A stretch of 26,707 bases of DNA from a virus. Taxonomy: Duplodnaviria > Caudoviricetes. The notes below the pieces were generated by a model, which was given only the letters and a program-made list of their open reading frames with translations, had not been told where the DNA came from and searched no databases. Shown piece by piece: positions 3,296 through 24,982 of this stretch; position 1 is the stretch's first letter; each line of letters starts with the position of its first letter. The position numbers and the translations under genes were made by a program. The stretch lies in IMG/VR virus record IMGVR_UViG_3300033516_000235, positions 1 through 26,707 of that record. One strand, written 5' to 3'.

Positions 3296-3318
3296 TGGGG
3301 CCAGTCTATTGTCACGAC
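3296..3318 (-). promoter_or_regulatory. Putative late promoter GTCGTGAC-AA-TAGACT-GGCCCC-A
   Basis: One of seven identically spaced copies; lies just after the stop of 3324..4727. Confidence 0.8.
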
Positions 3319-3323
3319 ACAGG

Positions 3324-4727
3324 TCAAATTCGCTCAACGCTCGTCACTTGACCGGAATATGTCACTGGCTGATGAACGACTGCCCCGGCATAACTCACCG
3401 CGCCGGCCAGGCGGTCCGTGTGGTTGTAGCGTAAGGAACCGTCTCGGCGAGCCGAACGAACGTGCGTGCCGTCGTGAAGCTGCGCAACGGGCGTTCCTCG
3501 CAAATGAATGCCATTCCGGGCGAATCGCCGGGTTATGACAAGGGAGCCGTCATCAAGCCCGGTGTGGCGGAAACCAGACCGGCCAAGGGTGCCGTTGCGA
3601 GTTGTAAGGCCATCAAAGGCAGAAGGGACGGCGAATTCATCGCTGCAGGTAACGGAAATTGATGCCGCCATTGAATCCGGCGCACGGCTGAACCGAATTC
3701 CGCTCCCGGCCCTCCACCCTCGCCGGTCCAGTGACCCGTCTCGCGCGCCGTTGAGGTAGGTGATCGGCAGCATGGCGCCACGCATTACAGAGCCATTGTG
3801 CAGCGGAATCGGAGGGGTCGATACGTCAGAAAGAGCCTCGTGCGCGTTCAGCGTCACGTCGTCAGAGTACGGCCCGGCCACATCCGACATGAACCCGGAC
3901 AACTGCACCTGGCGCAGCCGAGTACCGGCGTCGCGGAACTTATCGATGGCCGACCGGATGCGCACCATCAGGTCTGAAATATTCTCGGATGACAGCAGAT
4001 CGAAGTCAGCGTTCACGTCGAACTGGCCGTAAAAGCTGCGCACAATTGGCGCGCGCGCTCGAGTGCCGTCAAACCGGGTGAAGCCGTCTCGCTGAATGCC
4101 GGAAAATACCGAATCCATGGGGGCGTCTGTCACTTCTGACTTGAATCCGCCGGTGGCCGCCCCTATCGCCATTTCGATGGCGATGTTGTTTCCGCGCGGA
4201 AGCAGCGATTCCGCGATGATTCGAGGACCATATATCGCGTCCGTCTCGCCGGCCAGCCGGCGAATCCCGAAGTAACCGCCCCACTCGTCCAGCCATTCAG
4301 CGTCTGCCGATGGAATGGACATCTGGTCGACCATGCTGCCTATCTGGTTTCGCGACTCGGTGAGCTCTGCGGCCAAAGGCTCCATGTACGCCCAGACAAG
4401 GCTGCCGAAGCCATATAGGCAATCGCCATTGCCGTCGTTTTGATTCGCAGCACCATCGAGCAGGACCAGTGCCGAAAGATGGCTTTCTGGCGCCATGTAC
4501 TCGACGGAGACTGACGCCTTCGACGACAAGAGCTCGGCCAGGGACGCGATGGTGTAATCCGCCAAGGAGACGGAAATTGATTCAATCGCCGTGACCAGGA
4601 CAAGGGTTGCGTCCTCAATGCTCCAGGAGAGCGACCCAGAAGACCGAACGCGCAGCGCGATGAACCGATCAGGGCTCTTCGACAGTATCTGGTGCGCGTA
4701 GTTGAGCAGCTTTTCGGTGAGTTTCAT
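3324..4727 (-). CDS. Baseplate wedge protein (gpI/gp48-like core) with a C-terminal R-[DN]-G repeat extension
   Basis: ADAEWLDEWGGYFGIRRLAGETDAIY..RI is typical of gpI-like wedge subunits. It follows baseplate J with an ATGA overlap. Confidence 0.7.
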   Translation of the reverse strand: MKLTEKLLNYAHQILSKSPDRFIALRVRSSGSLSWSIEDATLVLVTAIESISVSLADYTIASLAELLSSKASVSVEYMAPESHLSALVLLDGAANQNDGNGDCLYGFGSLVWAYMEPLAAELTESRNQIGSMVDQMSIPSADAEWLDEWGGYFGIRRLAGETDAIYGPRIIAESLLPRGNNIAIEMAIGAATGGFKSEVTDAPMDSVFSGIQRDGFTRFDGTRARAPIVRSFYGQFDVNADFDLLSSENISDLMVRIRSAIDKFRDAGTRLRQVQLSGFMSDVAGPYSDDVTLNAHEALSDVSTPPIPLHNGSVMRGAMLPITYLNGARDGSLDRRGWRAGSGIRFSRAPDSMAASISVTCSDEFAVPSAFDGLTTRNGTLGRSGFRHTGLDDGSLVITRRFARNGIHLRGTPVAQLHDGTHVRSARRDGSLRYNHTDRLAGAVSYAGAVVHQPVTYSGQVTSVERI

Positions 4728-5839
4728 GTGATCGCCATCGTTCCGGGGATAACCTTCTGCGAATAGGAGACAGTCACATCAGTCGCCGGCAAAGACAGCG
4801 TGAAGTTGTAGACTCCCTCGATAGACATTGCGGCCGAAATCAACTCGGAACGAATTGCCGCCTCACCGATGCCAAGGCCTGTCAGGTACTCGCTGATCGC
4901 AGCGCCGACGAGAGGCGCCAAAGAGGCGGACGAATACCTAGGCAAAGCGGCCACAACCCCCGTGACATCTACCGAGACATTCTCAGCAGCCCCAATATCA
5001 ACCCGCACGCCTGCGGCTTTCCACCCGGGCACAGCCGTTCCGTCATCGGCGTAGTAGCCTTTCATCACCAAAAAGGCCTTGCTGATCAGATCAGCAGACG
5101 CGCCGCTCGCGCCGTTGTGAATAAAGCACTGAACCCAGGCGACCGGCTGGTTAATATCGTGAGCGAAAGGCTCGTAGACTGTCGAGAACTTGACGTACTC
5201 GGTCACCATGCCGTTAGCGTCGTAGAGCGCGGTCGAATTCAGCCCATACTTGAGCGAGGCGACAGTCCCGTGATTTAGCGTGGCAATGAAGGCGGAAAAC
5301 CGCAGCTTCCTGCTGGCATCGCTCTCGATGTCGCTGCCATTGGTGAAAGCGCCCTGATTTATCGCGGAGACAAACCCGGACGGCGGCGAGCTCATGGTGA
5401 AGCTGATGCCGCTCCCGATATTGGTAGAGACGCCCGAGGTTTTCGCGGAGACGAAGATATCGGCGAAGGTTTCGCCGGCAGGAATCGTCACGTTTGAGGT
5501 GCTTCCGAACGACAGCGACAGCGAGGCCGGCGTGAAGACCGTTCCCGAGGGAATCGTAGTGTCTTGGGTTGATACGCCAATCGTAACGCGCACGATGCCG
5601 CTCGACGGCCGCGCGGGAAGGATGCCGAACTCGAATGAGTTGTAGATGGCGACCGGGATAGCCTCCTTCAAGCCGATCCACATCTGCTGATACAGTTCGT
5701 CGATTTCGGCGGCCGGCGACTCGAACAGCGTTCGAGCAACCGACCCCACTCGGAAATCGGTCAGCTTGTCCTGAGTGGCCTTGGCGCGATTGGTCATCGC
5801 CAGGATGATTGACGCGAAGTCGCGGATCTGAAAAGCCAT
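4724..5839 (-). CDS. Baseplate J / gp47-like wedge protein
   Basis: TDF.VGSVARTL.E, TIP.GT, G...N, FTNG.D.ESD...K.RF..FI..L..GT and G.KAAGV motifs; 371 aa; position in the module. Confidence 0.9.
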   Translation of the reverse strand: MAFQIRDFASIILAMTNRAKATQDKLTDFRVGSVARTLFESPAAEIDELYQQMWIGLKEAIPVAIYNSFEFGILPARPSSGIVRVTIGVSTQDTTIPSGTVFTPASLSLSFGSTSNVTIPAGETFADIFVSAKTSGVSTNIGSGISFTMSSPPSGFVSAINQGAFTNGSDIESDASRKLRFSAFIATLNHGTVASLKYGLNSTALYDANGMVTEYVKFSTVYEPFAHDINQPVAWVQCFIHNGASGASADLISKAFLVMKGYYADDGTAVPGWKAAGVRVDIGAAENVSVDVTGVVAALPRYSSASLAPLVGAAISEYLTGLGIGEAAIRSELISAAMSIEGVYNFTLSLPATDVTVSYSQKVIPGTMAIT

Positions 5840-6435
5840 TAGATTAGAATCTCCAAACTCAGGTCTTTGCCGTCAATCGGCTGCGCGGTCGCGCTAATGC
5901 GGATCGAGTCGCCATCGGCGACGGCGACGCACGACAAGACGGTTTTCACGCGGTCATCTTCGAGCAGCGCGGATTTGACGTAGAAGGCGGCCAGAGCCAG
6001 TTGCGCGGCGCCCAATTTCACGCCGCGAAGTAGGCTCACCCAGCAGCCGTACTCCGGCGAGAATCCTTTGGCGCGCTTTTCAGTGACGACCCGGCGAACC
6101 AGGGCGATCTTCAGGTTCTGGAACCCGGAAATGATTTGCACATCACCATTGGCGATCAGGATTGCGCCATTACGGTCGAGCGACACGTCGACGCCGAACG
6201 TCTCTTTCTCGTCAGGATCGATGCCGGCGCTGAGCATCGGCACGGCGATCTTCGCGCCGGACAGAAGGACGCGATCACCAGCCAGCAGCGGGTCGTCGGT
6301 GATGAACGGCGGCAACAGGTCGTTCAGCCAGATCAGGTCTGTCCAGCGCGCGGAGTCGCCCAACTCGCGCAAGGCAATCGCCTGCAGCGTGTCGCCCCAA
6401 TTTGTTTCGACGTAGCGGACGGTGACGGTGCTCAC
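5839..6435 (-). CDS. Fused LysM-like (gpX) and gpW/gp25-like baseplate sheath-initiator protein
   Basis: N-terminal GDTLQAIALRELGDSARW..L..LN.L is LysM/tail-X-like. C-terminal G..NLK.AL..R..TE......PEYGC...LL.D.RV..V is gp25-like. Confidence 0.8.
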   Translation of the reverse strand: MSTVTVRYVETNWGDTLQAIALRELGDSARWTDLIWLNDLLPPFITDDPLLAGDRVLLSGAKIAVPMLSAGIDPDEKETFGVDVSLDRNGAILIANGDVQIISGFQNLKIALVRRVVTEKRAKGFSPEYGCWVSLLRGVKLGAAQLALAAFYVKSALLEDDRVKTVLSCVAVADGDSIRISATAQPIDGKDLSLEILI

Positions 6436-7598
6436 TGAAAACTCACGCCGGACGCGATTGAGCCGGCCGTTGCCCCGGCCGTCGCCAGTGTCGTCGTCGT
6501 CGGGTCCATGTTGGCGCCCTGGCTGACCGCCGCCGCGCCGCTGTTGGTCACCGCGACCGTGGCCTTGTCAGTTTTCAGCACGGCCGCAAACGTGTTCGAG
6601 GACACGTAGCTTGAAACGGCATGGCCGCCGGATGTCGATGCGCAATTGCCTGAACCGTAGATGTCGTAATCAGGCAAGAAGGTGCGCTTCTTGAACACGT
6701 TTTTGAGAACGCACATCATGTTGGTATAGGCGCTGCTGAGCGCCTGGAACTGCGCTTTGATCTGCTGCGGCAAGGTGGTCACCGCTGCGACGGCTTGCGC
6801 GATGTTCATCCCGGCCCGCATGATGTTCTGAGCCATGCCGATGAACTCGCCGACGACGCCGCTGACGACGCCGACGATGGATCGAACGGCCGAAATGACG
6901 GCTCGAGCAATGCGCGCGGTCAGTGCGACGAATTTTGCAATCGCCGCCTTGATGGGGGCGAGCACCGACGAAACCATCGTTTTTATGCTCGTGCAGAAGG
7001 CATCGAGCTTGGCGACAGAGGCCTCCAGGCTTTCAATCGCCGAGAGCGCTTGTTCTTCAGTGCTCGGCTTGCTCTTTGCCTTTTCGCTGCCGTGGTCGCG
7101 CAGCATGTGCATCGTAATGGCGTATTGAGCCAGGAGCGGACGCGACTTGTTGCGCTTCAGGACGAATTGCTGCGGAGCGATCACCCAATTCAGGTTATCA
7201 AGGCCGTCCGAGAGGATCAGCAGCACCTTGTCCGGATCCTGGCCTGACTTGGCAACCTCGTCGCGCAGCCGGTGCCATTCGGTAAAAACCGTCTTGTGCA
7301 GCTTGGCGAAGTGCTGGTACCCGTCATCGTCGCCGCCATTGACGCGCGGGCCGCCCCATCCGGTCACTCCGGACAGTGAAATAGTCTTGACGCCTTGCCC
7401 AAAGGAGTCCGCCCAGGCGCCGTCTTCGCCGAAAGTTTGCGTAATCGCCAGTCTCGACGGGTAGGCGATGGACAAATCTTCAGGACGAACGAAGAGCGGG
7501 AAAACTTCGGGCGCTCCATCGACTGCCGTGTTGTGCAGCGTGAACGCAATGGGGCGCGCATCAGTTTGTAGCGAGTCAGGAGTGGAAGAGATTGCCAT
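6432..7598 (-). CDS. Baseplate / tail-tube initiator-like protein
   Basis: N-terminal RPEDLS...PSR...QT...AW.D.FG.G..TI.LSG.TGW resembles tube-initiator domains, followed by a helical region; position between PAAR and wedge. Confidence 0.6.
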   Translation of the reverse strand: MAISSTPDSLQTDARPIAFTLHNTAVDGAPEVFPLFVRPEDLSIAYPSRLAITQTFGEDGAWADSFGQGVKTISLSGVTGWGGPRVNGGDDDGYQHFAKLHKTVFTEWHRLRDEVAKSGQDPDKVLLILSDGLDNLNWVIAPQQFVLKRNKSRPLLAQYAITMHMLRDHGSEKAKSKPSTEEQALSAIESLEASVAKLDAFCTSIKTMVSSVLAPIKAAIAKFVALTARIARAVISAVRSIVGVVSGVVGEFIGMAQNIMRAGMNIAQAVAAVTTLPQQIKAQFQALSSAYTNMMCVLKNVFKKRTFLPDYDIYGSGNCASTSGGHAVSSYVSSNTFAAVLKTDKATVAVTNSGAAAVSQGANMDPTTTTLATAGATAGSIASGVSFQ

Positions 7599-7620
7599 TA
7601 CCTGATGCTACGGTCACGAC
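7598..7620 (-). promoter_or_regulatory. Putative late promoter GTCGTGAC-CG-TAGCAT-CAGGTA-ATG (leaderless)
   Basis: Fills the whole 22-bp gap between the PAAR stop and the ATG at 7598; predicted +1 is the A of the ATG. Confidence 0.8.
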
Positions 7621-7884
7621 CTAACCGGCGAAGGTATCCCCGCTTCCCGTTGCGGCGTGGCCGCAGGTTGCTGCATCACCTTGGCGGCAGACTGGAATGC
7701 CGCAAGCGAACACGGTCGCCGAATGTCCTGACATGACCGGGCCGGAATGAGGCGGCAGGCCATGCCCGGAAACCGCTGCCCCCTCGACGGCCACGTTGCA
7801 GCCATTGACAAACACGGTCGGCGCCAACACGCCAACAATCGTGCCGCCGGCAGAATCCTCACCTACCCTGGCTATTCCTGGCAT
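7621..7884 (-). CDS. PAAR-repeat spike-tip protein
   Basis: IARVG, TVFVNG..VA..G...H...PH, V...G.PVCR.GD.A.CGH..TGS..F; 87 aa; directly after the spike gene. Confidence 0.92.
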   Translation of the reverse strand: MPGIARVGEDSAGGTIVGVLAPTVFVNGCNVAVEGAAVSGHGLPPHSGPVMSGHSATVFACGIPVCRQGDAATCGHAATGSGDTFAG

Positions 7885-7885
7885 G

Positions 7886-8548
7886 TCAGTTCAGATCAAT
7901 CTTCGAGGCTTTGACCGCAAAATTGCCGCCCGCCTCGATAGCGATGTCGCCGCCAGCCGATAGGGCAATGTCACCCCCAGAAATCAGTTTCGTATTCCCG
8001 ATGTTCTGAATCGTAATATTCCCATCCGGGTCGATATTGATCGATGCCTTCCCGCCAGCTTGCTCGACGTGGATATGGACGGCGCGGCCAGTATTGCGCG
8101 CGATCTTCCAGATCGAGTCGTAGTCTTTGCCGGTGAGGTCTTCGTGGGCAGGGCTCTCGGCAATCCGGACAAAGGCGCCAGACGGATGCGCCAACTCAAT
8201 GTTTCCGGCGGCGTCGATGGTGTGATAGACATCGGAGGCGTGCCGATCAACACGAAAGTCCGGACGCGCGAACAGGCACTCGGCGACTTCCGGGAACAGG
8301 AAGCCAACGACAAAGGGGATTTCGCGGTAGTAGCTGATCGCCGCGACGATATCGCGCTTCCCTGTGTTTTCCGAGTCGTAGCCGTTGGCCGCATCGGGAA
8401 GGTGCAAGTCGGCGACGCCGGTCTGCCCGGTCGCCATTTCGGCCAGGACGCGAACGGCAGACAGCGGCGCGCCGGTGCGCAAAACCACCACGTCGACACA
8501 GTTTGATTCCGGGTGGATGGCAACCACCTTCGCCAGTTCTTCGATCAC
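7886..8548 (-). CDS. Baseplate central spike (gpV/gp45-like)
   Basis: N-terminal OB-fold-like region (AKVVAIHP...VDV) and C-terminal beta-helix repeats (SGGDIAL, AGGDIAI, AGGNFAV) ending KIDLN; precedes PAAR. Confidence 0.8.
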   Translation of the reverse strand: MIEELAKVVAIHPESNCVDVVVLRTGAPLSAVRVLAEMATGQTGVADLHLPDAANGYDSENTGKRDIVAAISYYREIPFVVGFLFPEVAECLFARPDFRVDRHASDVYHTIDAAGNIELAHPSGAFVRIAESPAHEDLTGKDYDSIWKIARNTGRAVHIHVEQAGGKASINIDPDGNITIQNIGNTKLISGGDIALSAGGDIAIEAGGNFAVKASKIDLN

Positions 8549-10008: not shown

Positions 10009-12851
10009 CCGCGCGACATTCCGGCGCTGGTTTGCTGGAACCCACTCAATTCGACGGCCTTCTTCTCGGTGCGGCCGTCAGGGTAGTTCACGTTCAGATC
10101 TACCGATCCGCCGACCTTCGCAATCTGGTTGCCGGCGATGGCCGGGCGTGCGGCGTCGGGTATTTGCTTTTCCCGGTACGCGGCGATTTTGTCCGTGTAC
10201 TCGGAGGTTTCCTTGTTGCCCCACTTCGACTCATCCCAGCCGCCGTTATAGGCCTTCTGCGCCTTATCGTTCGTTTTGAATTTGCCCAGATTCTCCTGCA
10301 TCATCAGGCGATGAGCCTCAAGCTGGTCCGCGCGAGTGGCTATTTTCCGACCCAGCCGCGCTTCCATGACGCCCTGCTCTCGCGGCATGATTTGCCCAAG
10401 ACCCTTTGCACCTCTTGGCGAGACGGCGTTGTGGTCGCCTTGGCTCTCGACCATGATCTGCGCTTCAGAAGTGCCCGGGGCGGCGCCAAGCAGACGGTCT
10501 GTTTCGGCCAAATACGCCTTCTCGCTGTCCGAAAGCCCACTGCCTTTCGCTGGCTTCCGGCCAAGATTGGGCTTAATGCTCGGCGTGCCGGCGGGGTTTC
10601 CGTCACCACTATTCAGGACGGCCTCATGCGCTGCGCGAGGATCAATCGCAGACGGCGGATTGCCTTCGGCGGCGATTTCCTTTTTTATATCAGAAGGCGT
10701 TATCGCATTGGCTCGTCTCTCGCGCTCTTTTCGTAGCGCGTCAAGCTCTTCCTTCTCTCCGTCAAAATTAAAGCTGTGCGCCTTGCCAATGGCAGCGCTT
10801 CGCTCCTTGAACTCCTTCTCTGACATCGGCTGGATTCTTCCCTTTGCCATCGCCTTGTCGTGAACTGCTTTTTTTGCAGCATCATTAGGAGCCTCGTCCA
10901 AATTTTTCTGATACTCCTTGTTTGCCTGAAATTCTTTCATTTCTTTAGAAAGACCGCCGAATATTGGCAAATCAAGTATCTTGAAAACCCCTTCCTGAAT
11001 CATGTTTGTCAGGGGAATAATCTTCGTTGCAAATTCTTGAAACTTACGGTCAAGATCAACCTGCGCCTGGCGCGCGGCCTTCCCTTCGTCCTCAATTTCT
11101 CGGAAGGCGTTGATTTGCGTCAAAACCTTTTTCAAGCCATCTTCGGTCGTCGCGCCATTGAGCGAGTCCTTCTCCCTGGCGGTGAGTGCCTTGTTTCCAG
11201 TGAGCCCAAGTGCTTTTTCCTTCATCGTGGCAAGTTCTTTGCTGTCGCCCTGGTCGATGGCGGCCAGCATGCCCATTTGCGACAAGCTGATCTTGGACGC
11301 GTCTTTTCCAGTTCCGCTTAGCGCGCTGGCGATGCGCTCCTGAAGCCCGCCGATCCCGCCTTCGCTTCCGTGCTGCTTGATCAGCGAGCGCGCGCCAATG
11401 TCGGACACGCCATACTTGCCCATCATTGCCATCGGCAGAAATTCAGGGCTGTAGGAGGATTTCATTTCGTCGACATCGCGGTCGTAGAACGACTTGCTTC
11501 CGCCGCGCTTTGCCATGTCCAGCAAATGCGCCTGCCGGGCCTTATCACCGTCCGCCAGCTTGTAGAGCGGTGAGTTCTTACCGAACGTGCTTTGCGCACT
11601 CGCCCACGGGCCGGCATCGCCAATGGCGCCCATGTCTGTGGCGTTCGCCCCGAATCGCTGCGCCCAGCCAAGGCGCATGTTCATCCCAGCCTCGCCACCG
11701 CCATTTGCCCAATTGCCGGCGACTTGCCCCATGAGGTTTGCCGAGCCCCTGGCATCCATTCCCGGCAGCTTCATGCCGCCGAGCTTGCCCATCAATTCGG
11801 CATAGCCTTCGACGTTGGCGACCTGCAGTGATTGGCGCGACGTGGATTCAGTGAAATGCGCGATGGCGCTCATCACCTCATCGGCCTTCGAGAAGGCGCC
11901 GGTCTTTCCCACGGCATCACCGATCAGGTAGGCCAGCTTGCGATTGTCCTTTTCGCCGTCCGAGGCCTTGAAGTGGCGCATCGTGGCGAGAAAATCGACG
12001 CCGGCCTCCGGCGCCAGGCCGAGCCCTCGAGATAGTTGGGTACCTTGCCCTACGGCCTGGCCGATGCCAAAGCGGGCGGACTCGCCAAAAATCTGCGACG
12101 ACGCGGCGTACTGCTTGGCGAGCTTGGCGCTTTCGGCGCTGCTGATGCCCATTCCGTTCGTGAAAAGACGAACGGACTCGCGCAACTCGTCAAACCCAAC
12201 GGCGGCACCGCCGACCGACATTCGCAAGTCGTGGTACTGCGTCGCTTCGTCTTGCGCATCACCGACCTTCTGACCGACCTTCTGCACAGCCTTGATGCCG
12301 ACATAAGCCAATGCGGCGATGCCTGCCGCTTTTCCGATCATTCCCATGCCGCCGGCCGAGCCCGCGCCACCGTCAGAGTCTTGCGCGCTCCTGTAGCCTT
12401 GGTGAAGGATTCCGCTCGCAACACCGCCGCCCGCGCCGGTCGCGCGGAACATTCCGCCAAACGCAGTCCGAAGCATTCCGCCAATGCCGCCGCTCTGCTG
12501 TTGCGTTGGGCCAAGACCAAGCTGCTGCATCACCTCGTTGTAATGACGGTTTGCCTGCCGCTGCCCGGGAAAAGTCTGGCTGAATCCATTCGCCCACTTC
12601 TCCATGTCGCCGCCGTAGCGCTTCAAGCGCTGGCTGAACTTTGACATTTCCGTGAAATCGCGAGCGACTTGCGCAATCTGCGCATCGGTGAAAGTCTTGC
12701 CCATGCGCTGAGTGAGCGCCCGGCGGGCCGCCGCCTCGCGCTTTGCGATTTCGGAATCGGGGATTGTCCCGCCAGGACTGTTTCCACCGCCGGGCTTATT
12801 CGGCGTTCCGCCGTCTACCTTGACTTTCGCGTTGATATCAATGCTTGGCAT
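10005..12851 (-). CDS. Tape measure protein with C-terminal soluble lytic transglycosylase (SLT) domain
   Basis: 948 aa, Ala/Gly-rich and helical, after the chaperones. SLT motifs IMVESQG...AVSP.GA.GL.QIMP, AYNGG, ET..Y..KI. Confidence 0.9.
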   Translation of the reverse strand: MPSIDINAKVKVDGGTPNKPGGGNSPGGTIPDSEIAKREAAARRALTQRMGKTFTDAQIAQVARDFTEMSKFSQRLKRYGGDMEKWANGFSQTFPGQRQANRHYNEVMQQLGLGPTQQQSGGIGGMLRTAFGGMFRATGAGGGVASGILHQGYRSAQDSDGGAGSAGGMGMIGKAAGIAALAYVGIKAVQKVGQKVGDAQDEATQYHDLRMSVGGAAVGFDELRESVRLFTNGMGISSAESAKLAKQYAASSQIFGESARFGIGQAVGQGTQLSRGLGLAPEAGVDFLATMRHFKASDGEKDNRKLAYLIGDAVGKTGAFSKADEVMSAIAHFTESTSRQSLQVANVEGYAELMGKLGGMKLPGMDARGSANLMGQVAGNWANGGGEAGMNMRLGWAQRFGANATDMGAIGDAGPWASAQSTFGKNSPLYKLADGDKARQAHLLDMAKRGGSKSFYDRDVDEMKSSYSPEFLPMAMMGKYGVSDIGARSLIKQHGSEGGIGGLQERIASALSGTGKDASKISLSQMGMLAAIDQGDSKELATMKEKALGLTGNKALTAREKDSLNGATTEDGLKKVLTQINAFREIEDEGKAARQAQVDLDRKFQEFATKIIPLTNMIQEGVFKILDLPIFGGLSKEMKEFQANKEYQKNLDEAPNDAAKKAVHDKAMAKGRIQPMSEKEFKERSAAIGKAHSFNFDGEKEELDALRKERERRANAITPSDIKKEIAAEGNPPSAIDPRAAHEAVLNSGDGNPAGTPSIKPNLGRKPAKGSGLSDSEKAYLAETDRLLGAAPGTSEAQIMVESQGDHNAVSPRGAKGLGQIMPREQGVMEARLGRKIATRADQLEAHRLMMQENLGKFKTNDKAQKAYNGGWDESKWGNKETSEYTDKIAAYREKQIPDAARPAIAGNQIAKVGGSVDLNVNYPDGRTEKKAVELSGFQQTSAGMSRG

Positions 12852-13435: not shown

Positions 13436-13438
13436 GGG

Positions 13439-13868: not shown

Positions 13869-13893
13869 TGACTCCATGTGGATAATGGAGTCA
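13869..13893 (-). promoter_or_regulatory. 9-bp hairpin TGACTCCAT-TATCCAC-ATGGAGTCA sequestering the tube-gene RBS
   Basis: Perfect inverted repeat; the 3' arm contains GGAG and the 5' arm lies mostly upstream of the predicted +1 (13886). Confidence 0.7.
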
Positions 13894-13908
13894 GCGTGGC
13901 GTCACGAC
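13886..13908 (-). promoter_or_regulatory. Putative late promoter GTCGTGAC-GC-CACGCT-GACTCC-A
   Basis: Copy of the seven-fold motif upstream of the tube gene. Confidence 0.8.
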
Positions 13909-13963: not shown

Positions 13964-14494
13964 ATGATCCGAATAAACATTTTTGTCGCCGCAGTATTTC
14001 TACTTGCGGCAACTCACGCCGCAGCGCAAGATGACCCGTGCAGCAAGAAATGGGCGTACCCGGACAACGCCATCAAGCATCACACAGCGGACTCGACATG
14101 GAAGAACTGCGGCGAGCCGGAAGTTCGGATGGTGGCGGTTTACCAACAGAAGAACTTGGTATGGAGGCGCTGTAGCGAGGGGCAAGCATGGAGCGCCGGA
14201 ACATGCAAAGGTGGGGCAAGCCTTTTCACATATGAGCAGGCGCTGAAACGCGCTGAATCTCAAGCCGGCTGGCGAATGCCAGATCAGTTGGAGTTGAGTT
14301 CCCTACACCGTGGCACCAAAGACACCCCTGCAATCGATCTTGCTGCATTCCCCTCTACTCCTGGATTTGCCTATTGGTCATCGACGCCGGCAGGCCCAGA
14401 AGGATATGCGTGCGGATATGATTTTCGTGATGGCGGCGTAGAGGTATGCACGCTTCGGAGCAAGAAATTCCATGTGCGGTTGGTGCGCCAGTAA
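13964..14494 (+). CDS. Secreted DUF1566 / Lcl C-terminal-like (CLec-fold) protein; moron
   Basis: Signal peptide (MIRINIFVAAVFLLAATHAAA); LVWRRC.EGQ.W, GWRMP...EL.SL, ID..AFP.TP...YWSST, VRLVR; GAGGGA RBS; opposite strand to its neighbours. Confidence 0.85.
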   Translation: MIRINIFVAAVFLLAATHAAAQDDPCSKKWAYPDNAIKHHTADSTWKNCGEPEVRMVAVYQQKNLVWRRCSEGQAWSAGTCKGGASLFTYEQALKRAESQAGWRMPDQLELSSLHRGTKDTPAIDLAAFPSTPGFAYWSSTPAGPEGYACGYDFRDGGVEVCTLRSKKFHVRLVRQ

Positions 14495-14834: not shown

Positions 14835-14839
14835 CAGGC

Positions 14840-14869
14840 AAAAAAGAAGCCGCGCAAGGCGGCCTCTTT
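14840..14869 (-). terminator. Intrinsic terminator after the sheath gene, possibly bidirectional
   Basis: Minus strand GAGGCCGC-CTTGC-GCGGCTTC-TTTTTT between convergent genes. Confidence 0.8.
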
Positions 14870-14887
14870 ACTGGAATCCCCTCTCGG

Positions 14888-16606: not shown

Positions 16607-16612
16607 TCTCCT

Positions 16613-16861: not shown

Positions 16862-16879
16862 TTGGAAAAGCTCCTTTAT

Positions 16880-17707
16880 TTAGAAAATTGGGGTTGTAAC
16901 AACGTCGCGGATTGCGCCCTCAAGGGCCGTGTTCAGGCTCATTGCGGTACAGGTGAGCGTGCCGTTGATCAGATAAACCGGCGCCGAGTAGCGCTCGAAC
17001 TCTTCGGCGTCTTGCTGGCTCAGGTTGGGGTTCATCATTCCGGCGTCGTTGAATATCGCCAGGTTGCCAATGACGATTCGCTTGATCGCCTTGCGCAGCG
17101 CGATGCGCTCGTCCGGATTCAGGGAGTAACCAACGATTCCGATATTCCAGTGCGACAGCCAGCCTTCGGACGACTCCCACCCCAAGGAACCCTCGTCGAA
17201 CACGTCTTCGGTCATGGTTTCGCCAATGGCGCGGTCGCCTGACGAATCCACGTTCACGTGGACGGTGACTATCGGCCAGGCGGTGTTCTCGAAAAGGGGC
17301 GGTGCAGTCAGCACCTGGATGCGGCCGTTCTTGTTGTTCAGCTTTCCGCGCGCGACTTCGACCTGGAGGCCAAGGTCGACGCGTTCTCGGACAATCGACA
17401 GAACGTCGACAGAGCCGTCGTCATCGATGGCCGCTGGCGTGATTGAGCGTGAGGAATCGGATAGCCAAGCCTTTGCGACCAGCGAATAGAGCCTGTAGAA
17501 ATAGGTCGTTCCGTTGATCAGTCCGGACCAATCCAGAACCGCTTTTGTTGGCTCGCCGTCATAGACGACAACGGCGCCGACATCATTCCAGCCGGCAAAG
17601 GTGTCTGCCGTCTTGCGCAGCAGAACGCAGCGCGTCGCGCCGGTCGGCGGATTCAAAATCAGCCGAGTAGCGTTGCCGGTCGGTAGCGGTTGAGCCATAA
17701 CTATCAT
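16880..17707 (-). CDS. Tail terminator / neck-like protein with an N-terminal FN3-like segment
   Basis: N-terminal D.SGL.NGTTYFYRLY is FN3-like; WP.VTV and acidic C-terminal region; position before the sheath. Confidence 0.55.
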   Translation of the reverse strand: MIVMAQPLPTGNATRLILNPPTGATRCVLLRKTADTFAGWNDVGAVVVYDGEPTKAVLDWSGLINGTTYFYRLYSLVAKAWLSDSSRSITPAAIDDDGSVDVLSIVRERVDLGLQVEVARGKLNNKNGRIQVLTAPPLFENTAWPIVTVHVNVDSSGDRAIGETMTEDVFDEGSLGWESSEGWLSHWNIGIVGYSLNPDERIALRKAIKRIVIGNLAIFNDAGMMNPNLSQQDAEEFERYSAPVYLINGTLTCTAMSLNTALEGAIRDVVTTPIF

Positions 17708-17729
17708 GCGTCGATACTGGCGTCACGAC
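17707..17729 (-). promoter_or_regulatory. Putative late promoter GTCGTGAC-GC-CAGTAT-CGACGC-ATG (leaderless)
   Basis: Motif copy; predicted +1 is the A of ATG 17707. Confidence 0.8.
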
Positions 17730-17732
17730 CGG

Positions 17733-17755
17733 GGCGTGACACTAGACTGGCGCAA
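17733..17755 (+). promoter_or_regulatory. Putative late promoter, plus-strand variant GGCGTGAC-AC-TAGACT-GGCGCA-A
   Basis: 7/8 match to the box with identical spacing, back-to-back (3 bp) with the minus-strand copy, upstream of the inverted gene. Confidence 0.75.
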
Positions 17756-17765
17756 AGGGGGCTCT

Positions 17766-18536
17766 ATGGCCGATTACTCTGTCACGCTGGATTTCAGCAA
17801 CGAAACGCTTGGCATGGCTCAGATCAACAAGATGCTGGCCGCCAGAATTCACGGTGCCATTGGCGTTGCCGCGCAGAATGTCTATGCGCTATGGGCTGAT
17901 CGGGTAATGAAGGCGCCGGGGATATGGCATCCTGAACGGGTCGCCTATGTCCAATCGCTGAAGTGGAACTACACCGGGGATCTGTCGGCACGCGTATGGA
18001 CCGACTACAAGGTCGCCGACGAAATTGAAACCGGACGGCCGTCGCGCGACCTCAAGCGTATGCTGCAGACCAGCAACAAGACGCGGCAAGGGAAAAACGG
18101 GAAGTATCTGATCATCCCATTCAGGCACAACGTTCCAAGCGGAGACGGCCACTCGAGCAACGCAAGGCAGATGCCCCCAGAGATTTATGCCATGGCTCGA
18201 AAGCTCCCGGTATCAATGACTACGGGAAAGACAACCCGCGTGTCGGCAACCGGCGCCACCGTGCCGCAGAGCACCTACAAATGGGGCGGTCGCCTTCCGG
18301 CGGGCCTGGCGCCAAAGCTCAACCCGTCGCACGCCAGCGATCCGTATGCTGGCATGGTGAAGATGCGCGAGAAAGGCAGCAGCAAGGCGTCCGGATACTT
18401 GACGTTCCGTGTCATGACGGAAAGGTCGCCGGGCTGGATCATCCCGGCAAAGCCCGGCCAGTTCATCGCTCGCGACGTGGCGAAAGAGGCGCAGCCCGAT
18501 GTCGAAGCGATTATTGCCGGGTCGATGGAAGGGTGA
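17766..18536 (+). CDS. Neck / tail-completion-like virion morphogenesis protein, inverted (start revised to ATG 17766)
   Basis: IETG....DLK..L, GKNGKYLIIPFRH, Y.GMVK, YLTFRVM...S.GWIIP match motifs recalled from myovirus neck-region genes; AGGGGG RBS before 17766. Confidence 0.65.
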   Translation: MADYSVTLDFSNETLGMAQINKMLAARIHGAIGVAAQNVYALWADRVMKAPGIWHPERVAYVQSLKWNYTGDLSARVWTDYKVADEIETGRPSRDLKRMLQTSNKTRQGKNGKYLIIPFRHNVPSGDGHSSNARQMPPEIYAMARKLPVSMTTGKTTRVSATGATVPQSTYKWGGRLPAGLAPKLNPSHASDPYAGMVKMREKGSSKASGYLTFRVMTERSPGWIIPAKPGQFIARDVAKEAQPDVEAIIAGSMEG

Positions 18537-19696: not shown

Positions 19697-20211
19697 TGGC
19701 CTACTCCCATGCACATTTTGAAAACGCGTTCGCGATCCTTCGGGATTCCGCCACAGAAATGCTTGTTTTGCGGAAGCGTGCAGTCGCGCCCTTGGACGTA
19801 CTTGTATTGCTTGATCACTGCGCAGCCGCCCGCGTAGTCGCCGGTCCTGAATTTCCTGACAATGCCGGACTTGCAGACGGTTGCCGTGCCCATGTTGTAG
19901 GCCAGGTCGACAAGCGAGTCATACTCGTGCTGGTACATCACGATGCCGCCGGCGCACGCCTTTATTCCAGCCTCGTATTTGCTCTTCACGTCGCGCTGCG
20001 CGAGCTCGCGCGCTGCGGTCCTAGTGATCGTGTCGCCCATCTGCACCGGCGAGCCATCCGGCCGGAATGTGCTTCCGTAGCCATAGGTCGGCCGATCTTC
20101 TGGAACCGGGATCATCGCAGCCGGTTCAAACCCCTCGCGCGTCAGGATGCCGGCAAAGGCCACGGCCGAAATCGCGAGTGTCGCCGCTGCTTTGCGGATA
20201 TTAGGATCCAT
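19693..20211 (-). CDS. Endolysin, GH24 lysozyme family, probable SAR endolysin
   Basis: Weakly hydrophobic Ala-rich N-terminus (RKAAATLAISAVAFAGIL) followed by EG...D.PT.GYGST, Q.EYD.LV.LAYN.G, C.S...K, G....R.. Confidence 0.88.
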   Translation of the reverse strand: MDPNIRKAAATLAISAVAFAGILTREGFEPAAMIPVPEDRPTYGYGSTFRPDGSPVQMGDTITRTAARELAQRDVKSKYEAGIKACAGGIVMYQHEYDSLVDLAYNMGTATVCKSGIVRKFRTGDYAGGCAVIKQYKYVQGRDCTLPQNKHFCGGIPKDRERVFKMCMGVGQ

Positions 20212-20416
20212 TGGTCATCCTCGGCTGCGCCACGATGCGCGAGACGGTTGCGCCGATGGCCACGACGAATGACAGGCCTGCAAATATCCCTCGAGGAAGG
20301 TTATCGCCGAGCAACGGCAGCACAACCTCGGCGCCGGAGAATGCAGCAGCAATCAGCGCCAGCCTGATGCTCCAGGCTTTTCTGAAAATGGTCTTCCAGT
20401 CATTGACGAGCCCCAT
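20201..20416 (-). CDS. Holin (two transmembrane segments)
   Basis: 71 aa; WK...RKAWSIRL, two hydrophobic stretches, R.VAQP; immediately upstream of the endolysin. Confidence 0.75.
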   Translation of the reverse strand: MGLVNDWKTIFRKAWSIRLALIAAAFSGAEVVLPLLGDNLPRGIFAGLSFVVAIGATVSRIVAQPRMTNGS

Positions 20417-21181
20417 CTACATCACCATGCATCGGATACCTTGCAGGGAGTCCCGCAAGGTGTTGAGCATTGAGTCGACGCCGGCAGAGAACTTATCCAC
20501 ATCGGCCGAGAAGGACTGGCTCAGGCCATCGGCTGAGATTGAGCCCGACTGCGGGACAAACGCATCGTTGATGATGCGCAGCACGGACATTTTCTTGATC
20601 AGGTCGATCAGGTCCGGATAGTCGCGCGCCGCGTTCGTCATGCCGGCGAGGTATCGAATCTTGATCATTTGCGGAATCGTCCGGCCGCCAGCCATCATCG
20701 ACATGATCATTGCCGAGAACGCGCCGACCGCCATCGTTCCGCCGGCCGGGACGAATTGGATATGCCCGGCCTTCTTGTCGACGCGCATCCATGATGCGGG
20801 AATGTGCAGCGTGCTGGCCGCCGGCGCCGGATAGACGAATTCCATCGAGACGACCTTGGATATCAGCTTGTTGCGCAAGACCAGATAGCCCCAATCCTCG
20901 GTGTTCCACAGTTCGGGCTCATAGTCGTAGGCGGCCTCTTCGACCCATGGCGCATCGCCGACAGCTACTATCTCCGCATCGCTTGGCTCGCCGGCAAAGA
21001 CCGTCGTCGGCTCGAAGAACACGCGCAGGCGCCGCGCTGCGTCCGCTTCGGCGGCCAGCAGCTTGCTGTAGACGTAGTCGTCATCCAGGTCGGTCGCCGT
21101 GAAATACGATCCGCCGGCCACGATCAGTCGATTCGAGCGAAGCTCCGCGACGATCTTCTCTTTGTCGGCAAAGAGGGTCAC
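20417..21181 (-). CDS. Head-tail adaptor / neck protein
   Basis: AE....R.L.VF..PT, YDY, L...I..V, P..I.I.Y.AG, S.S.DGLSQS motifs; first gene after the capsid operon. Confidence 0.7.
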   Translation of the reverse strand: MTLFADKEKIVAELRSNRLIVAGGSYFTATDLDDDYVYSKLLAAEADAARRLRVFFEPTTVFAGEPSDAEIVAVGDAPWVEEAAYDYEPELWNTEDWGYLVLRNKLISKVVSMEFVYPAPAASTLHIPASWMRVDKKAGHIQFVPAGGTMAVGAFSAMIMSMMAGGRTIPQMIKIRYLAGMTNAARDYPDLIDLIKKMSVLRIINDAFVPQSGSISADGLSQSFSADVDKFSAGVDSMLNTLRDSLQGIRCMVM

Positions 21182-21206
21182 TGGCGCATGTCCTTGAAAG
21201 AGTTCA

Positions 21207-21229
21207 TGGGGTCATCGTGCCGTCACGAC
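21207..21229 (-). promoter_or_regulatory. Putative late promoter GTCGTGAC-GG-CACGAT-GACCCC-ATG
   Basis: Motif copy directly after the capsid-operon terminator. Confidence 0.8.
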
Positions 21230-21236
21230 CGACAGC

Positions 21237-21262
21237 AAAAAGCCCGGAGTGACCCGGGCTTT
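21237..21262 (-). terminator. Intrinsic terminator of the head operon
   Basis: Minus strand AAAGCCCGG-GTCACT-CCGGGCTTTTT. Confidence 0.85.
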
Positions 21263-21291
21263 CTGGTGGTTACGCGGCCGGTTGCCTGGTA

Positions 21292-21558
21292 TCAGGCGGC
21301 TGGCGCTTCCTTTTTGCCTTTGCCGGTTTTGCTGGCAGCGAGCGCTTCGTCCGTTTTGCCGGCATCGGATTCTTCGCCGGGTTTTCCGGCAGCGAGCGCT
21401 TCGCCGTCATCCTCGACCGTGTAGCCGGGAATGTCTTCAAACTGGCTGGCCTCGTCTTTCGAGAGCCCTTCGGCGACGACGCTTTGATCATCCTGGCGAA
21501 CGAAGTCGATGCCGTTGATGTTCTCGGTCACATGGGGCAATGTGCAGGTCACTTTCAT
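21292..21558 (-). CDS. Small acidic protein downstream of the capsid (start revised to ATG 21558)
   Basis: AAGGA RBS overlapping the upstream stop; structured N-terminus (INGIDF...F..IPGY) and low-complexity tail. Confidence 0.7.
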   Translation of the reverse strand: MKVTCTLPHVTENINGIDFVRQDDQSVVAEGLSKDEASQFEDIPGYTVEDDGEALAAGKPGEESDAGKTDEALAASKTGKGKKEAPAA

Positions 21559-21568
21559 GATTCTGTCC

Positions 21569-21808
21569 TTATCGGTTTTCGATGGTGACGACTTGCGCCG
21601 CACCGCCGAGGGTTGAAGCGTGATCGACGGCCGCGCCGTGATTGGCGTCGAGCTTGGCGAGCAGCGCGTTGAACTTGGTTGCCAGCGCGTTGAACTTGGT
21701 TGCCAGCGCGTTGTTTGCGGCGATCAAGTCGAAAACGATGTCGCCGAGTTTGGCGGCCGCGTGCGCCGGCATGGCGCCATTGAGAACCTTTTGTCTATCC
21801 AGACCCAT
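21569..21808 (-). CDS. Small coiled-coil head-associated protein (decoration or head-fibre-like); start revised to ATG 21808
   Basis: AAGGAG RBS; heptads NALATKF-NALATKF-NALLAKL; follows the capsid gene. Confidence 0.65.
   Translation of the reverse strand: MGLDRQKVLNGAMPAHAAAKLGDIVFDLIAANNALATKFNALATKFNALLAKLDANHGAAVDHASTLGGAAQVVTIENR
21662..21713. repeat. 21-bp tandem repeat, about 2.5 copies (CAGCGCGTTGAACTTGGTTGC)
   Basis: Exact copies at 21662-21682 and 21683-21703, partial copy at 21704-21713. Confidence 0.95.
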
Positions 21809-21822
21809 CTTTATCTCCTTGG

Positions 21823-21848
21823 AAAAACGACGACCCCGAAGGGCCGCC
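21823..21848 (-). terminator. Terminator or attenuator hairpin after the major capsid gene
   Basis: Minus strand GGCGGCCC-TTCG-GGGTCGTC-GTTTTT, with a cUUCGg tetraloop and G-U pairs. Confidence 0.8.
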
Positions 21849-21867
21849 ATTCGTCAAACGTCGCCTA

Positions 21868-23367
21868 TCAGGCGTGCGGCTTCCACGCGGCGTTGGCCGG
21901 GAGGATGTTCTTGATGTAGCCGTGGTGCTTCGGCTTCGTCACGCGCAGGTAGCCGAACAGGAACTGGAACCAGCTATTGACCGGGACGCCGCCGATACCG
22001 AAGGGCAGCGGGATCTTGGTCATGGGCTGGAACTGGCGCCAACCGATTGCGTCGGCAGACGGGTTCATGTTCAAGCAAGGCACTTGAACGGTGCCGGGAA
22101 TGTCGAGGTTGAAGTCGACATAGGTGCCCGCCTTGGCGATCACCTTGACCAGACGGAAGTCAGCAGCAACCGCGCCGGCGCCATTCTGCTTCGAGCGGTA
22201 GATCGCGTAGCCCGACTCGGCACCTCCAGCAGACGGCGTGATCGTGATCGTCACCTTGTTGCCCGAGCCGACAGCAGCCGTTCCGGAAATGGTGATCGCC
22301 GAATTGCCTTCACCGTTCGGCCCGATACCGGCGACGGCGTAGATGTAGTTGCCGGCGCGCGCGGTGTTGAACTGGCTCGTCGCGGTGGCGTCGGCAGCCG
22401 CAGCGACCGCGACCGTAGCCGGCTTGAAGGCCGCATTGGCGACGGCGACGGTCGGCCAGGTGACTTCGGTCGGCTTCGCCATCGGGAAATCGCCGTGGTG
22501 AAGGAACGTGTCGATGTTGGTCTTGAGGATGCCTTCGGTAAGGCGAATGCCTTCAACGTGGCCGCCGATGGTCAGCGTCGTGTTTTGCTGGCTGCTCCAA
22601 CGGAATGAAGGGTCAAGACCCATATTCAGGTCGGTTTGAACGGCAGTCGGCAGGAAGGTTTCGGTGATGCGGCCCCAATTGCCGTAATCCTGAATGGCCG
22701 CCTGCAGACGGGTGAAAGGATCCACCGAAGTCATGGCCGAGCCGTTCATGTTGATGACGTGATCTGACCCGCACTTGCCGGCGGCGATGGCGGCGTCGAT
22801 CTGGGTGAAGATACCGTCGAACTGCGTCGGCGAAGCAGCGGCATTGCCGTTGAACAGCAGGTACTCGGCATCGGTCAGGAGTTGCAGGGCGCCGTTGCGC
22901 TCTTCGACCGCCATCGGCTCGGCCATGTTCTTGCCGAGGTTCAGCACGTAGCCGACTTGACGCATCGTCATCAGGAACTTGACCAGGCCGATTTCACGGC
23001 TGTATTCGCCCTGAGCCGCGCGAACGGTACCCATTTGCGAGTTGGTCGATCCACCGAGAACGCCGCCGATGCTGTTCTGACGGGTGTATTCATCAACGAT
23101 GTTGGTCGCCGACGACTGGTGCAGCTTCTTGAACAGAACGAAGTGCTCTTCTTCCTGCACGACCGTCTTCATCGCGGTATCGAGCGACTGTTGGCCCAGC
23201 GCGCCGCCACCGGTCAGCGTCGCCGTGTCGGTTTGGTAGGCGCTCGCGGTCAGCGCCTTCTGCAGTTCGCCGACTTCCGCCAGCGCCCCGCCTTGCGAGC
23301 CGCCCAACACCGCAGCGCCGCCGGCCGCTACGCCAGCGAATTGCGCCATGAGTTCTTGAGGATTCAT
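21868..23367 (-). CDS. Major capsid protein (499 aa; start revised to ATG 23367)
   Basis: AGGAG RBS; KAL....Y.TD......GAL..QSLD, F.LFK.L....A...V.EY, KFL...RQV, E..LF.G, FDG resemble SPO1/Twort-like capsids (recalled); follows protease and scaffold. Confidence 0.9.
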   Translation of the reverse strand: MNPQELMAQFAGVAAGGAAVLGGSQGGALAEVGELQKALTASAYQTDTATLTGGGALGQQSLDTAMKTVVQEEEHFVLFKKLHQSSATNIVDEYTRQNSIGGVLGGSTNSQMGTVRAAQGEYSREIGLVKFLMTMRQVGYVLNLGKNMAEPMAVEERNGALQLLTDAEYLLFNGNAAASPTQFDGIFTQIDAAIAAGKCGSDHVINMNGSAMTSVDPFTRLQAAIQDYGNWGRITETFLPTAVQTDLNMGLDPSFRWSSQQNTTLTIGGHVEGIRLTEGILKTNIDTFLHHGDFPMAKPTEVTWPTVAVANAAFKPATVAVAAAADATATSQFNTARAGNYIYAVAGIGPNGEGNSAITISGTAAVGSGNKVTITITPSAGGAESGYAIYRSKQNGAGAVAADFRLVKVIAKAGTYVDFNLDIPGTVQVPCLNMNPSADAIGWRQFQPMTKIPLPFGIGGVPVNSWFQFLFGYLRVTKPKHHGYIKNILPANAAWKPHA

Positions 23368-23404
23368 TTTGTAAGTCTCCTGAGTTTTGAAATTTTGAAA
23401 CGGG

Positions 23405-24076
23405 TTAGCCGGCCATGATCTTGCTGACGATGGCCTGGTCGATTTCCGCGCCGTGGCGCAGGGCCACATCGCAAATCGTCAAATCTTTTCCGCTGATGCG
23501 ACCGGAGTCGTAGGCGGCATTGGCCTTCTGCATGAAGCTGGTGGCGTTCAGCGGGGCGTTGTCCTGCAGGCTCTTCACCATGTCGAGCGACGGCGACACC
23601 ACGGACTTGCGGCCGGAGCCTGAATTCGCCAGCACAGCGTAGTTTTCCTGCAGCGACTTGATCATGGTGCTTTGGCGCGTGACCACGCCGACCAGGATTT
23701 CGAGCGACTTGGTAAGGTCGGACTTTTCGGCCTTGTCGTCCTCGACGCCTTTCGCCAGGTCGTCGATGCGACCGGTCAGCGATTTGATCAGGTCGGTGGC
23801 ATCAACGGCCTCGAAGGGCTCGCCTTTGTCCGTGGTCCCGGAGAACGACTTGGTAAGCGGCCCAACTTCGGCAGCCGCCTTGCCTTCGCCTTCGCCCTGG
23901 CCTTCGCCGTCATCGGCCTTCTTGGCGGTAGGCTTGCCGTCCGCGTCGAGCTCGTCGTCGCCCTTGTCGGCAGCGCCATCGGCGGCAGCCGCCTTGATTT
24001 TTTCAGCATCCTCGTCGGCTGCTGCATAGCTCTTTTGCAGCGTCTCAAGGTCGTCCAGCAGTTTTTCGTAGCTCAA
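23405..24076 (-). CDS. Scaffolding protein (TTG start)
   Basis: Acidic, low-complexity and coiled-coil, between protease and capsid; AAGGAG RBS; repeated L/M-x-K-S motifs. Confidence 0.75.
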   Translation of the reverse strand: MSYEKLLDDLETLQKSYAAADEDAEKIKAAAADGAADKGDDELDADGKPTAKKADDGEGQGEGEGKAAAEVGPLTKSFSGTTDKGEPFEAVDATDLIKSLTGRIDDLAKGVEDDKAEKSDLTKSLEILVGVVTRQSTMIKSLQENYAVLANSGSGRKSVVSPSLDMVKSLQDNAPLNATSFMQKANAAYDSGRISGKDLTICDVALRHGAEIDQAIVSKIMAG

Positions 24077-24087
24077 TTGTTGCTCCT

Positions 24088-24960
24088 TTAAGTTCGCCGC
24101 TTAGCAGCCGATTGTTGAATTCCACGAAGGAACTTTTCGACCCACTCAGAAGCCTGGTCATCGGAAAGCCCGAACGTGCGAATAGCGTAATTTTTAAAGT
24201 CACGACCAGCCGAGTGGTTGCGGATCGCTGCTGACAGGCGCTCGCGAAAGTCGAAATAGCTCTTGATTCCGGTATCGATTGATTGCGTGCCGAGGGCTGC
24301 GCCGCCGGTCAGCGCGCTGGCATCCGTGGCGTAGCTGGCTTCGAGCGCCTTGCCGAAGACAAAGCCGTTCAGCGACTTGGCGAAAACACCAAGAGGTGCA
24401 GTTGACGCAACGTCGAGCCCTGGATGTACCGGCCCGGTGCTGAGCGCCAGGTTGTTCCAGCGCGATTTCGTCACCACAGGGATCTTGTCGCCGGTGAGCG
24501 GGTCGATTCGAATTTCTCGGCCAAGCACGGCGCCGCCGACAGAGGCGTAGTAGCGCGCAGGCGGATTGAGCTTGGTCAGCCCGTCCCAAACGTTGTTGGC
24601 CTTGGCTGCCAGCGGCGTATCGCCAGAATAGAGCCGGGCCTTTACCAGAGTGGTATCGCCGGAGAATCGCACCTCGAGCGGCTGCCCGATGGCCCACTCT
24701 TCGGCGATCAAGCCGAAACGCTGCGCCACGCTGGGCATTGACTTGTGATCGAGGTCGAGTTGCCCGAACTTGATGAAATACTCGGCCGATTCCTTCAGCG
24801 CCTTGGCAAGTACAATCTCGCCCTCAATGTCCTTGGACTCTTTCGACGCCTCGACGTAGATGATTCGGCTATCGCCCTCGGTTGCCGGCGTAGCCTTCAT
24901 CATGGTTCCGAAAACCATGAAGTCGGGGATGGTGGATAGCAGTTGCTCGTCGTTCAGCAT
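24088..24960 (-). CDS. Prohead maturation protease (herpes/HK97-type fold)
   Basis: EAS.ES.D.EGE.V, G.LD.DH, IG.P, ASVGG, NLALS..PVH carry the His and Ser catalytic-type motifs; first gene of the head operon. Confidence 0.82.
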   Translation of the reverse strand: MLNDEQLLSTIPDFMVFGTMMKATPATEGDSRIIYVEASKESKDIEGEIVLAKALKESAEYFIKFGQLDLDHKSMPSVAQRFGLIAEEWAIGQPLEVRFSGDTTLVKARLYSGDTPLAAKANNVWDGLTKLNPPARYYASVGGAVLGREIRIDPLTGDKIPVVTKSRWNNLALSTGPVHPGLDVASTAPLGVFAKSLNGFVFGKALEASYATDASALTGGAALGTQSIDTGIKSYFDFRERLSAAIRNHSAGRDFKNYAIRTFGLSDDQASEWVEKFLRGIQQSAAKRRT

Positions 24961-24982
24961 GCCGCCATAGTGGCGTCACGAC
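24960..24982 (-). promoter_or_regulatory. Putative late promoter GTCGTGAC-GC-CACTAT-GGCGGC-ATG (leaderless)
   Basis: Motif copy; predicted +1 is the A of ATG 24960; no Shine-Dalgarno sequence present. Confidence 0.8.

Follow-up and report, generated by a model that had tools for sequence, protein, structure and literature searches.

The 26,707-nucleotide (nt) virus record IMGVR_UViG_3300033516_000235 (the window, by which we mean this whole 26.7-kb stretch of DNA) carries head, lysis, tail and baseplate genes, and raises the question of what a repeated element before these genes, the octamer GTCGTGAC followed at a fixed distance by a -10-like hexamer, does and which protein reads it. From its sequence and placement, the signal is very probably a promoter of late genes, and quite probably it is read by the family of gp82 of Pseudomonas phage Dolphis. 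The explanation as a whole, in which GTCGTGAY-N2-NANNNT is a late promoter used by sigma70 RNA polymerase together with a gp82-family zinc activator, appears moderately probable. New here is the gp82 family as a named activator candidate, which is well supported, resting on genomic context. No description of the motif or of a gp82-family protein was found in the literature searched, with subscription papers, including the original PHB04 report, outside that search. The literature consulted includes PMC9503643, PMC10695390, PMC3931495, PMC8628076 and bioRxiv 10.64898/2026.04.20.719267; in the paper on the related phage Mecenats66, the words ‘promoter’ and ‘motif’ occur 0 times.

On re-reading the window, the seven sites of a preliminary description (six exact GTCGTGAC copies and one GGCGTGAC variant) proved exact, with all hexamers, N2 and N6 gaps and +1 adenines present. 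The full pattern GTCGTGAC-N2-YANNNT-N6-A has six matches, all on the minus strand, and none in 100 dinucleotide shuffles, and the bare octamer occurs seven times versus a mean of 0.97 expected. All seven listed copies are indeed intergenic when gene starts are set at 24960, 21181, 17707, 17766, 13864, 7598 and 3268; the accompanying statement that no exact copy lies inside a gene does not survive, as GTCGTGAC is found at 24206-24199 within the protease open reading frame (ORF). Missed earlier was that the +1 adenine is the A of a structural gene's ATG at three of the seven sites; another two stand before mini-ORFs that overlap the next start, and the remaining two have short leaders.

By sequence comparison, the window belongs to a PHB04/Dolphis-like myovirus and is not P1-like. 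Its capsid protein is 57-66% identical to those of Bordetella phage PHB04, Pseudomonas phages Dolphis and Jeremy, Aeromonas ST4, E. coli ECML-606-1, phiT5282EW and fHe-Yen8-01, with lower identity to Touem01 and Mecenats66 (38-40%) and to the Thermus Lalka phages (33%). Phages of this family are about 90 kb, range in G+C from 47% to 69% and have alpha-, beta- and gammaproteobacterial hosts; among cultured members, ECML-606-1 (nine sites and gp82) infects E. coli and Dolphis infects P. putida. When loci were grouped by capsid identity, we found the element in 51 of 58 loci at 55-85% (the seven without it being fragments of 2.4-10.4 kb) and in none of eight loci at 27-29%. A further five records contain 10-12 copies apiece, against 0 for the reversed control.

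The geometry of the element is strongly constrained across relatives. An A and a T at hexamer positions 2 and 6, with a gap of 2 nt, occur in 301 of 352 distinct octamer contexts, whereas each of the other gaps from 0 to 7 accounts for at most 25 (≤7%). An ATG lies 6 nt past the hexamer in 112 of these 301 and 7 nt past it in 37 (149/301 in total), any other offset occurring at most 10 times. Base preferences are A or C at -8 (92%), C at -1 (55%), A at +1 (59%) and C at -12 (51%); the first hexamer base is C, G, T and A in 51, 24, 16 and 9% of cases family-wide, not a pyrimidine as first described, and the eighth base of the octamer may be T across the family. No conserved bases upstream of -22 and no TG extension were found in the octamer contexts, and -35-like words are not in excess (22 versus 27 in a shifted control). 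A de novo search for words before A..T boxes returned the octamer as the top word in 8 of 10 genomes. This is the predicted geometry of a sigma70-type opening without a -35 box.

Placement was counted in 12 genomes, allowing one mismatch. A site precedes the protease gene in 12/12, the portal gene in 11/11, the first gene of the sheath unit in 12/12 and the baseplate gene in 10/12, and overall 86 of 241 late core genes have a site versus 5 of 121 core genes for replication, integration and regulation. The genes so preceded in relatives are virion, packaging and lysis genes, together with some accessory genes (a TraR-like gene, gp98 and a transposase). The TraR/DksA-like gene adjoins the integrase (L067-L078), with a variant site upstream in all six genomes having the gene. 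In two lysogens, sites of the ATG-anchored form are concentrated in the prophage (6/7 and 7/7 sites), with counts of 2, 0 and 1 in three other genomes, and on host chromosomes (34.3 Mb, five island-bearing host genomes) the 16-mer shows no enrichment (41 sites versus 40 in the control). Restriction to late genes, the fixed gap between octamer and hexamer, the lack of -35 information and confinement to phage DNA all hold on testing.

Candidates for the reader were looked for among the non-structural genes of the family. Those present in all eight complete genomes compared include gp47-like, SSB and the adjacent pair Dolphis gp82 and gp83. The gp82 family is absent from the window itself, in line with the earlier proposal that the reader is encoded outside it, and is found in 19 of 19 near-complete records of the clade and 0 of 5 distant ones; in GenBank, exactly 10 phage records have it, the same records as form the capsid clade. 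Among further records picked for gp82, 32 of 36 have the motif. The protein is basic (174 amino acids (aa), median isoelectric point 9.6), with eight conserved cysteines and a near-invariant basic stretch; no Pfam match was obtained at an E-value below 0.07, and a few longer homologues have sub-threshold N-terminal helix-turn-helix matches. Its AlphaFold model is confident (predicted local distance difference test (pLDDT) 89.9). A gp82-gp83 complex model scored 0.74 (best control 0.47), with runs agreeing in at least 65% of contacts and a partner pLDDT of at least 79; 116 of 157 solved pairs and 2 of 215 mismatched pairs reach this mark, which applies roughly here. The predicted interface involves mostly the gp82 C-terminal domain and leaves most of the basic stretch free, and the modelling supports binding of gp82 to its neighbour gp83, a match to which is absent from 26 of 130 gp82 loci.

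Homologues of gp82 also occur on chromosomal islands, of which we analysed 22: from the 26 gp82 loci with no gp83 match we took the bacterial ones of at least 11 kb, leaving out two viral contigs and two short fragments. These contain 27 strict sites versus 0.9 expected, and 14 of 22 have a same-strand GTCGTGAN site within 600 nt upstream of the gp82 homologue, versus none of 80 phage-type loci and 1.2% of windows drawn at random, a count to be read with the knowledge that the relaxed N in GTCGTGAN was picked after seeing GTCGTGAG variants and that the strict count is 9/22. The site stands directly before the homologue in seven of these 14 islands (with the ATG at +1 in L237 and L238) and before a small upstream gene in the other seven. 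Divergent copies precede AlpA genes in three of four tested islands, and other copies precede a helical protein of 261-269 aa that has no Pfam match and, by its Atlas features, points weakly to a Psu cluster (0.88, 178 features, a lead only). Tyrosine integrase (L230, L231, L233, L238, L242 and L243), DUF927 or VapE primase (L224, L230, L234, L238 and L247) and AlpA (3/4 tested) are not all present in every locus; many islands also have a nearby tRNA gene and defence-type genes. No homologues of the family capsid, portal or terminase were found in any island locus or in the wider flanks of six, and a search of five host drafts with one capsid query did not find the capsid protein. A tape-measure homologue in L231, L233 and L220 and a tail-hub homologue in L224, L234, L238 and L248 possibly serve tail hijacking or interference in these capsid-less islands, and L246, with five tail genes, may be a phage remnant. 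In a quick tree (138 columns), island homologues fall in several places, with at least three changes forced by strong branches. This island layout points to gp82 as the activator, because P4 delta, an Ogr homologue, promotes helper and satellite late genes (PMC8628076). Two individual islands have further features: L237 has Type I-F csy1-csy4 at 4463-8366 beside its gp82 homologue and AlpA, with no cas1 or cas3 among the ORFs scanned, and L238 has at 5918 a second, partial gp82-like ORF of 92 aa with its own GTCGTGAG site.

We propose that the host sigma70 RNA polymerase would need a zinc-type activator made by the phage in order to use the promoter. This activator, for which the gp82-family protein (with gp83 as its predicted partner) is the most likely candidate, would contact the octamer instead of a -35 box. 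Sigma70 would open the DNA through A-11 and T-7, with the activator compensating for the missing -35 box and the non-consensus -12 base; transcription would begin at the predicted +1, and messages with the ATG at that position would be translated leaderless. The gp82 protein would be made earlier, from a motif-free promoter. The islands would act as satellites: the activator of the helper would switch them on, and their own gp82 copy would then amplify the signal, like P4 delta.

Several observations weigh against this proposal, in addition to the late choice of the relaxed island pattern. The relatives share ancestry, so genome and site counts are not independent, and co-occurrence alone does not single out gp82 because every phage core gene co-occurs with the motif. 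Mecenats66 has gp82 but 0 full motifs, only scattered degenerate sites, and three further genomes (G064-G066) have gp82 and 0 canonical motifs; the structure searches made, with no Foldseek scan of the PDB among them, matched the gp82 model to no known DNA-binding fold. G066 has a drifted core such as TTCGGGAC before the same genes, and the Mecenats66 gp82 replaces a Lys/Arg kept in 105 of 105 aligned homologues, an anecdote only.

The late promoter could be read by another phage protein, with island gp82, placed under it, only sensing infection and having another job such as interfering with the helper. Satellites can encode inhibitors, gp47-like and SSB are also near-universal non-structural genes, gp82 matched no known fold and the islands lack gp83. 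However, of the phage core genes only gp82 is shared by every island locus (by construction), homologues of gp47 and SSB occur in none of them, a genome with a different replication module (G002) keeps gp82, gp83 and 10 sites, and the island layout mirrors that of P4, whose shared gene is an activator (PMC8628076); we regard another reader as unlikely. A direct reading of the whole 16-mer by a sigma-like subunit of the phage or an alternative sigma factor of the host would suit its rigid spacing, which resembles one extended recognition element, and a -12 base that is not T. The preliminary description had left the choice between an activator and a sigma factor, and the evidence now favours the former: a Sigma70_r2 profile, which very divergent sigma-like proteins may escape, has matches in 0 of 5 complete relatives and in 10 of 14 control genomes, and the spread of hosts over alpha-, beta- and gammaproteobacteria, with no enrichment on host chromosomes, argues further against a sigma factor, making this reading very improbable.

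Scarcely more credible is that the octamer is a repressor operator or an antiterminator-loading site over autonomous weak promoters. Repressors and lambda Q-type factors do bind in promoter spacers, the octamer is a near palindrome (GTC-GT-GAC) lying within the spacer, and gp83 has a weak match to a Q-like PHROG (E 0.042). Nevertheless, the promoters lack the -35 box or TG extension that autonomy would require, neither the orientation nor the 2-nt gap is relaxed, both T at position 8 and the G066 variant break the palindrome, the lytic-looking fHe-Yen8-01 (no integrase annotated) retains its sites, and many sites have no nearby terminator. As for a mark for DNA packaging, partition or RNA processing instead of a promoter, a parA cassette adjoins site 1; this cassette is missing from a close strain, however, the A-11/T-7 box, pyrimidine-purine start and ATG at +1 fit promoter geometry, and the octamer would fall outside the message in leaderless copies, which leaves such a mark the most improbable of these readings.

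The promoter reading predicts a regulated block at 215-24960 on the minus strand, with protease, scaffold-like, major capsid, adaptor, holin, endolysin, spanin, sheath, tube, tape measure, baseplate and tail fibre genes. Site 1 (24960-24982, minus strand; GTCGTGAC-GC-CACTAT-N6-A), whose orthologue is present in 12/12 genomes, has its +1 at the ATG of the head maturation protease gene, predicted to be leaderless. The extra octamer within that gene (24191-24206, minus strand) encodes Gly-Arg-Asp and is followed by TT TAAAAA, with A2 present and T6 absent. At its codon position, 8 of 48 distinct orthologous stretches keep the octamer, four of these eight with a full box; the eight that keep Gly-Arg-Asp all write it as GGT CGT GAY, against a codon background in protease orthologues of 220 GGT among 1169 Gly codons and 89 CGT among 714 Arg codons. 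Probably it marks an internal promoter of a subclade that is imperfect in the window, possibly a weak or decayed one for the scaffold and capsid genes. Adjoining site 1, a cassette of parA and a small gene (25038-25977) has its own TTGATA-18-TATAAT promoter; because contigs from a close strain run directly from 25037 to 25978, it is a strain-variable insertion.

It had also been proposed that copies sit where transcription must restart. This is borne out in part, by a terminator-like hairpin and U-tract at 21237-21265 (minus strand; fold of 21232-21275, -21.7 kcal/mol) immediately upstream of site 2, and by a terminator-like hairpin at 14840-14869 (minus strand), 3' of the tail sheath gene; for the copies at 7620 and 3318, which come after a stop codon, no terminator was seen. 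Site 2 (21207-21229, minus strand; GTCGTGAC-GG-CACGAT) has its +1 at the ATG of a nine-codon ORF (21207-21178) whose stop overlaps the GTG of an adaptor-like gene. Site 7 (3296-3318, minus strand; GTCGTGAC-AA-TAGACT) likewise precedes a seven-codon ORF (3291-3268), its stop overlapping the ATG of a 148-aa gene (3268-2822), and translational coupling is possible at these two mini-ORFs just past the predicted starts. Sites 3 and 4 are back to back: site 3 (17707-17729, minus strand; GTCGTGAC-GC-CAGTAT; orthologue in 12/12 genomes) has its +1 at the ATG of a 275-aa gene, the first of the tail sheath unit and predicted to be leaderless, and site 4 (17733-17755, plus strand; GGCGTGAC-AC-TAGACT) has a leader of 11 nt, containing GGGGG, ahead of the inverted gene 17766-18536; the orthologue of this gene is preceded by a counterpart, mostly a one-mismatch variant, in 9/12 genomes. 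The inverted gene is phrog_16819, conserved and inverted in most relatives. Site 5 (13886-13908, minus strand; GTCGTGAC-GC-CACGCT) serves the leadered (GGAG) start of the tail tube unit and lies after a gene with an Lcl C-terminal domain (13964-14494), which is inserted between sheath and tube on the opposite strand. The tube gene is preceded by a site in just 2 of 12 genomes, which suggests that site 5 was gained with the Lcl-gene insertion. Site 6 (7598-7620, minus strand; GTCGTGAC-CG-TAGCAT; orthologue in 10/12 genomes) abuts the PAAR gene stop and has its +1 at the ATG of a 388-aa baseplate gene, again predicted to be leaderless. Where the tape-measure gene ends (about 10134-10182), a short go-back joint with variant letters is visible in read contigs.

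Predicted leaderless starts would correct gene starts in the PHB04/Dolphis-like family. Leaderless ATGs at L069:14320 and L067:13976 lie upstream of the annotated starts of Dolphis gp15 (14482) and PHB04 gp014 (13967), which are therefore probably mis-called. Separately, a 112-kb Rhodovastum plasmid (NZ_OW485606.1, L079) has the structural module, 14 sites and a divergent gp82, and is likely a phage-plasmid member of the family. If true, the proposal implies that virion genes in Proteobacteria are translated leaderless on a large scale, and that the islands are satellites of a helper family for which none was found described. Few phage late activators are known in Proteobacteria, and gp82 would add a new protein family and a new site geometry; the gp82 switch may be portable, tight and orthogonal, because it is conserved over 47% to 69% G+C and very different hosts.

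Phage-specific late recognition in place of host -35 contact is exemplified by T4 gp55 and SPO1 gp28/gp33-gp34. The tail sheath and capsid here are distantly SPO1-like, but no sigma region 2 domain was found in relatives and the -10 box keeps host sigma70 features, unlike in those systems. The closest promoter plan is that of P1, which has about 11 dispersed late promoters with a box near -22 and a -10 hexamer, under positive control by a phage protein (PMC10695390; NC_005856 annotation). Both share the box near -22, the hexamer, the lack of a -35 box and dispersal before late genes, and GTGAC lies within 4 of 11 P1 boxes as in the family octamer. However, P1 uses as its box a 9-bp inverted repeat placed 4 nt ahead of the hexamer, the GTGAC in it ends 6 nt from the hexamer instead of 2 nt, and all 11 P1 promoters lie 19-88 nt from a start codon. 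The P1 box AAGTTACTT has 0 occurrences in 16 sequences, a single-sequence tblastn search of 16 sequences found no Lpa homologue in the relatives (best E-value 0.74), and the P1 genome contains no gp82 and no motif copy.

The closest circuit is that of P2 and P4, and here the likeness is in layout only. In P4, divergent late promoters drive sid-delta-psu and vis; our islands have integrase, primase, AlpA and a Psu-like lead, and carry the gp82 homologue under the predicted late promoter (14/22 versus 0/80). Ogr is a zinc-binding late activator whose satellite homologue promotes helper and satellite late genes (PMC3931495, PMC8628076). Its sites are TGT-N12-ACA and it has one CX2CX22CX4C finger, whereas gp82 has 174 aa, eight Cys and a predicted partner, and the gp82 circuit is not homologous to Ogr/delta by profile (Ogr_Delta PF04606 in 0/5 relatives, control E. 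coli positive). Leaderless messages are common in Thermus and unusual in Proteobacteria. In the Thermus phage Lalka27a, with a distantly related capsid (33%), many -35-less late promoters are mostly leaderless, with starts mapped 6 nt after TANNNT and the factor unknown (bioRxiv 10.64898/2026.04.20.719267); its consensus differs, being TAGGGT with a C at -25, and it has 0 motif copies and no gp82 match. In its fullest form, our proposal is that a two-subunit zinc activator, gp82-gp83, binds the spacer at -22 to -15 and directs -35-less starts in three proteobacterial classes, giving largely leaderless virion mRNAs, and that unrecognised satellites repeatedly captured gp82 and its promoter, re-creating a P2-P4-type transactivation circuit from unrelated parts; this fuller picture we put forward tentatively, as falling somewhat short of probable. 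The PHB04/Dolphis signal works like the P1, Ogr/delta and Lalka27a systems and is a member of none of them.

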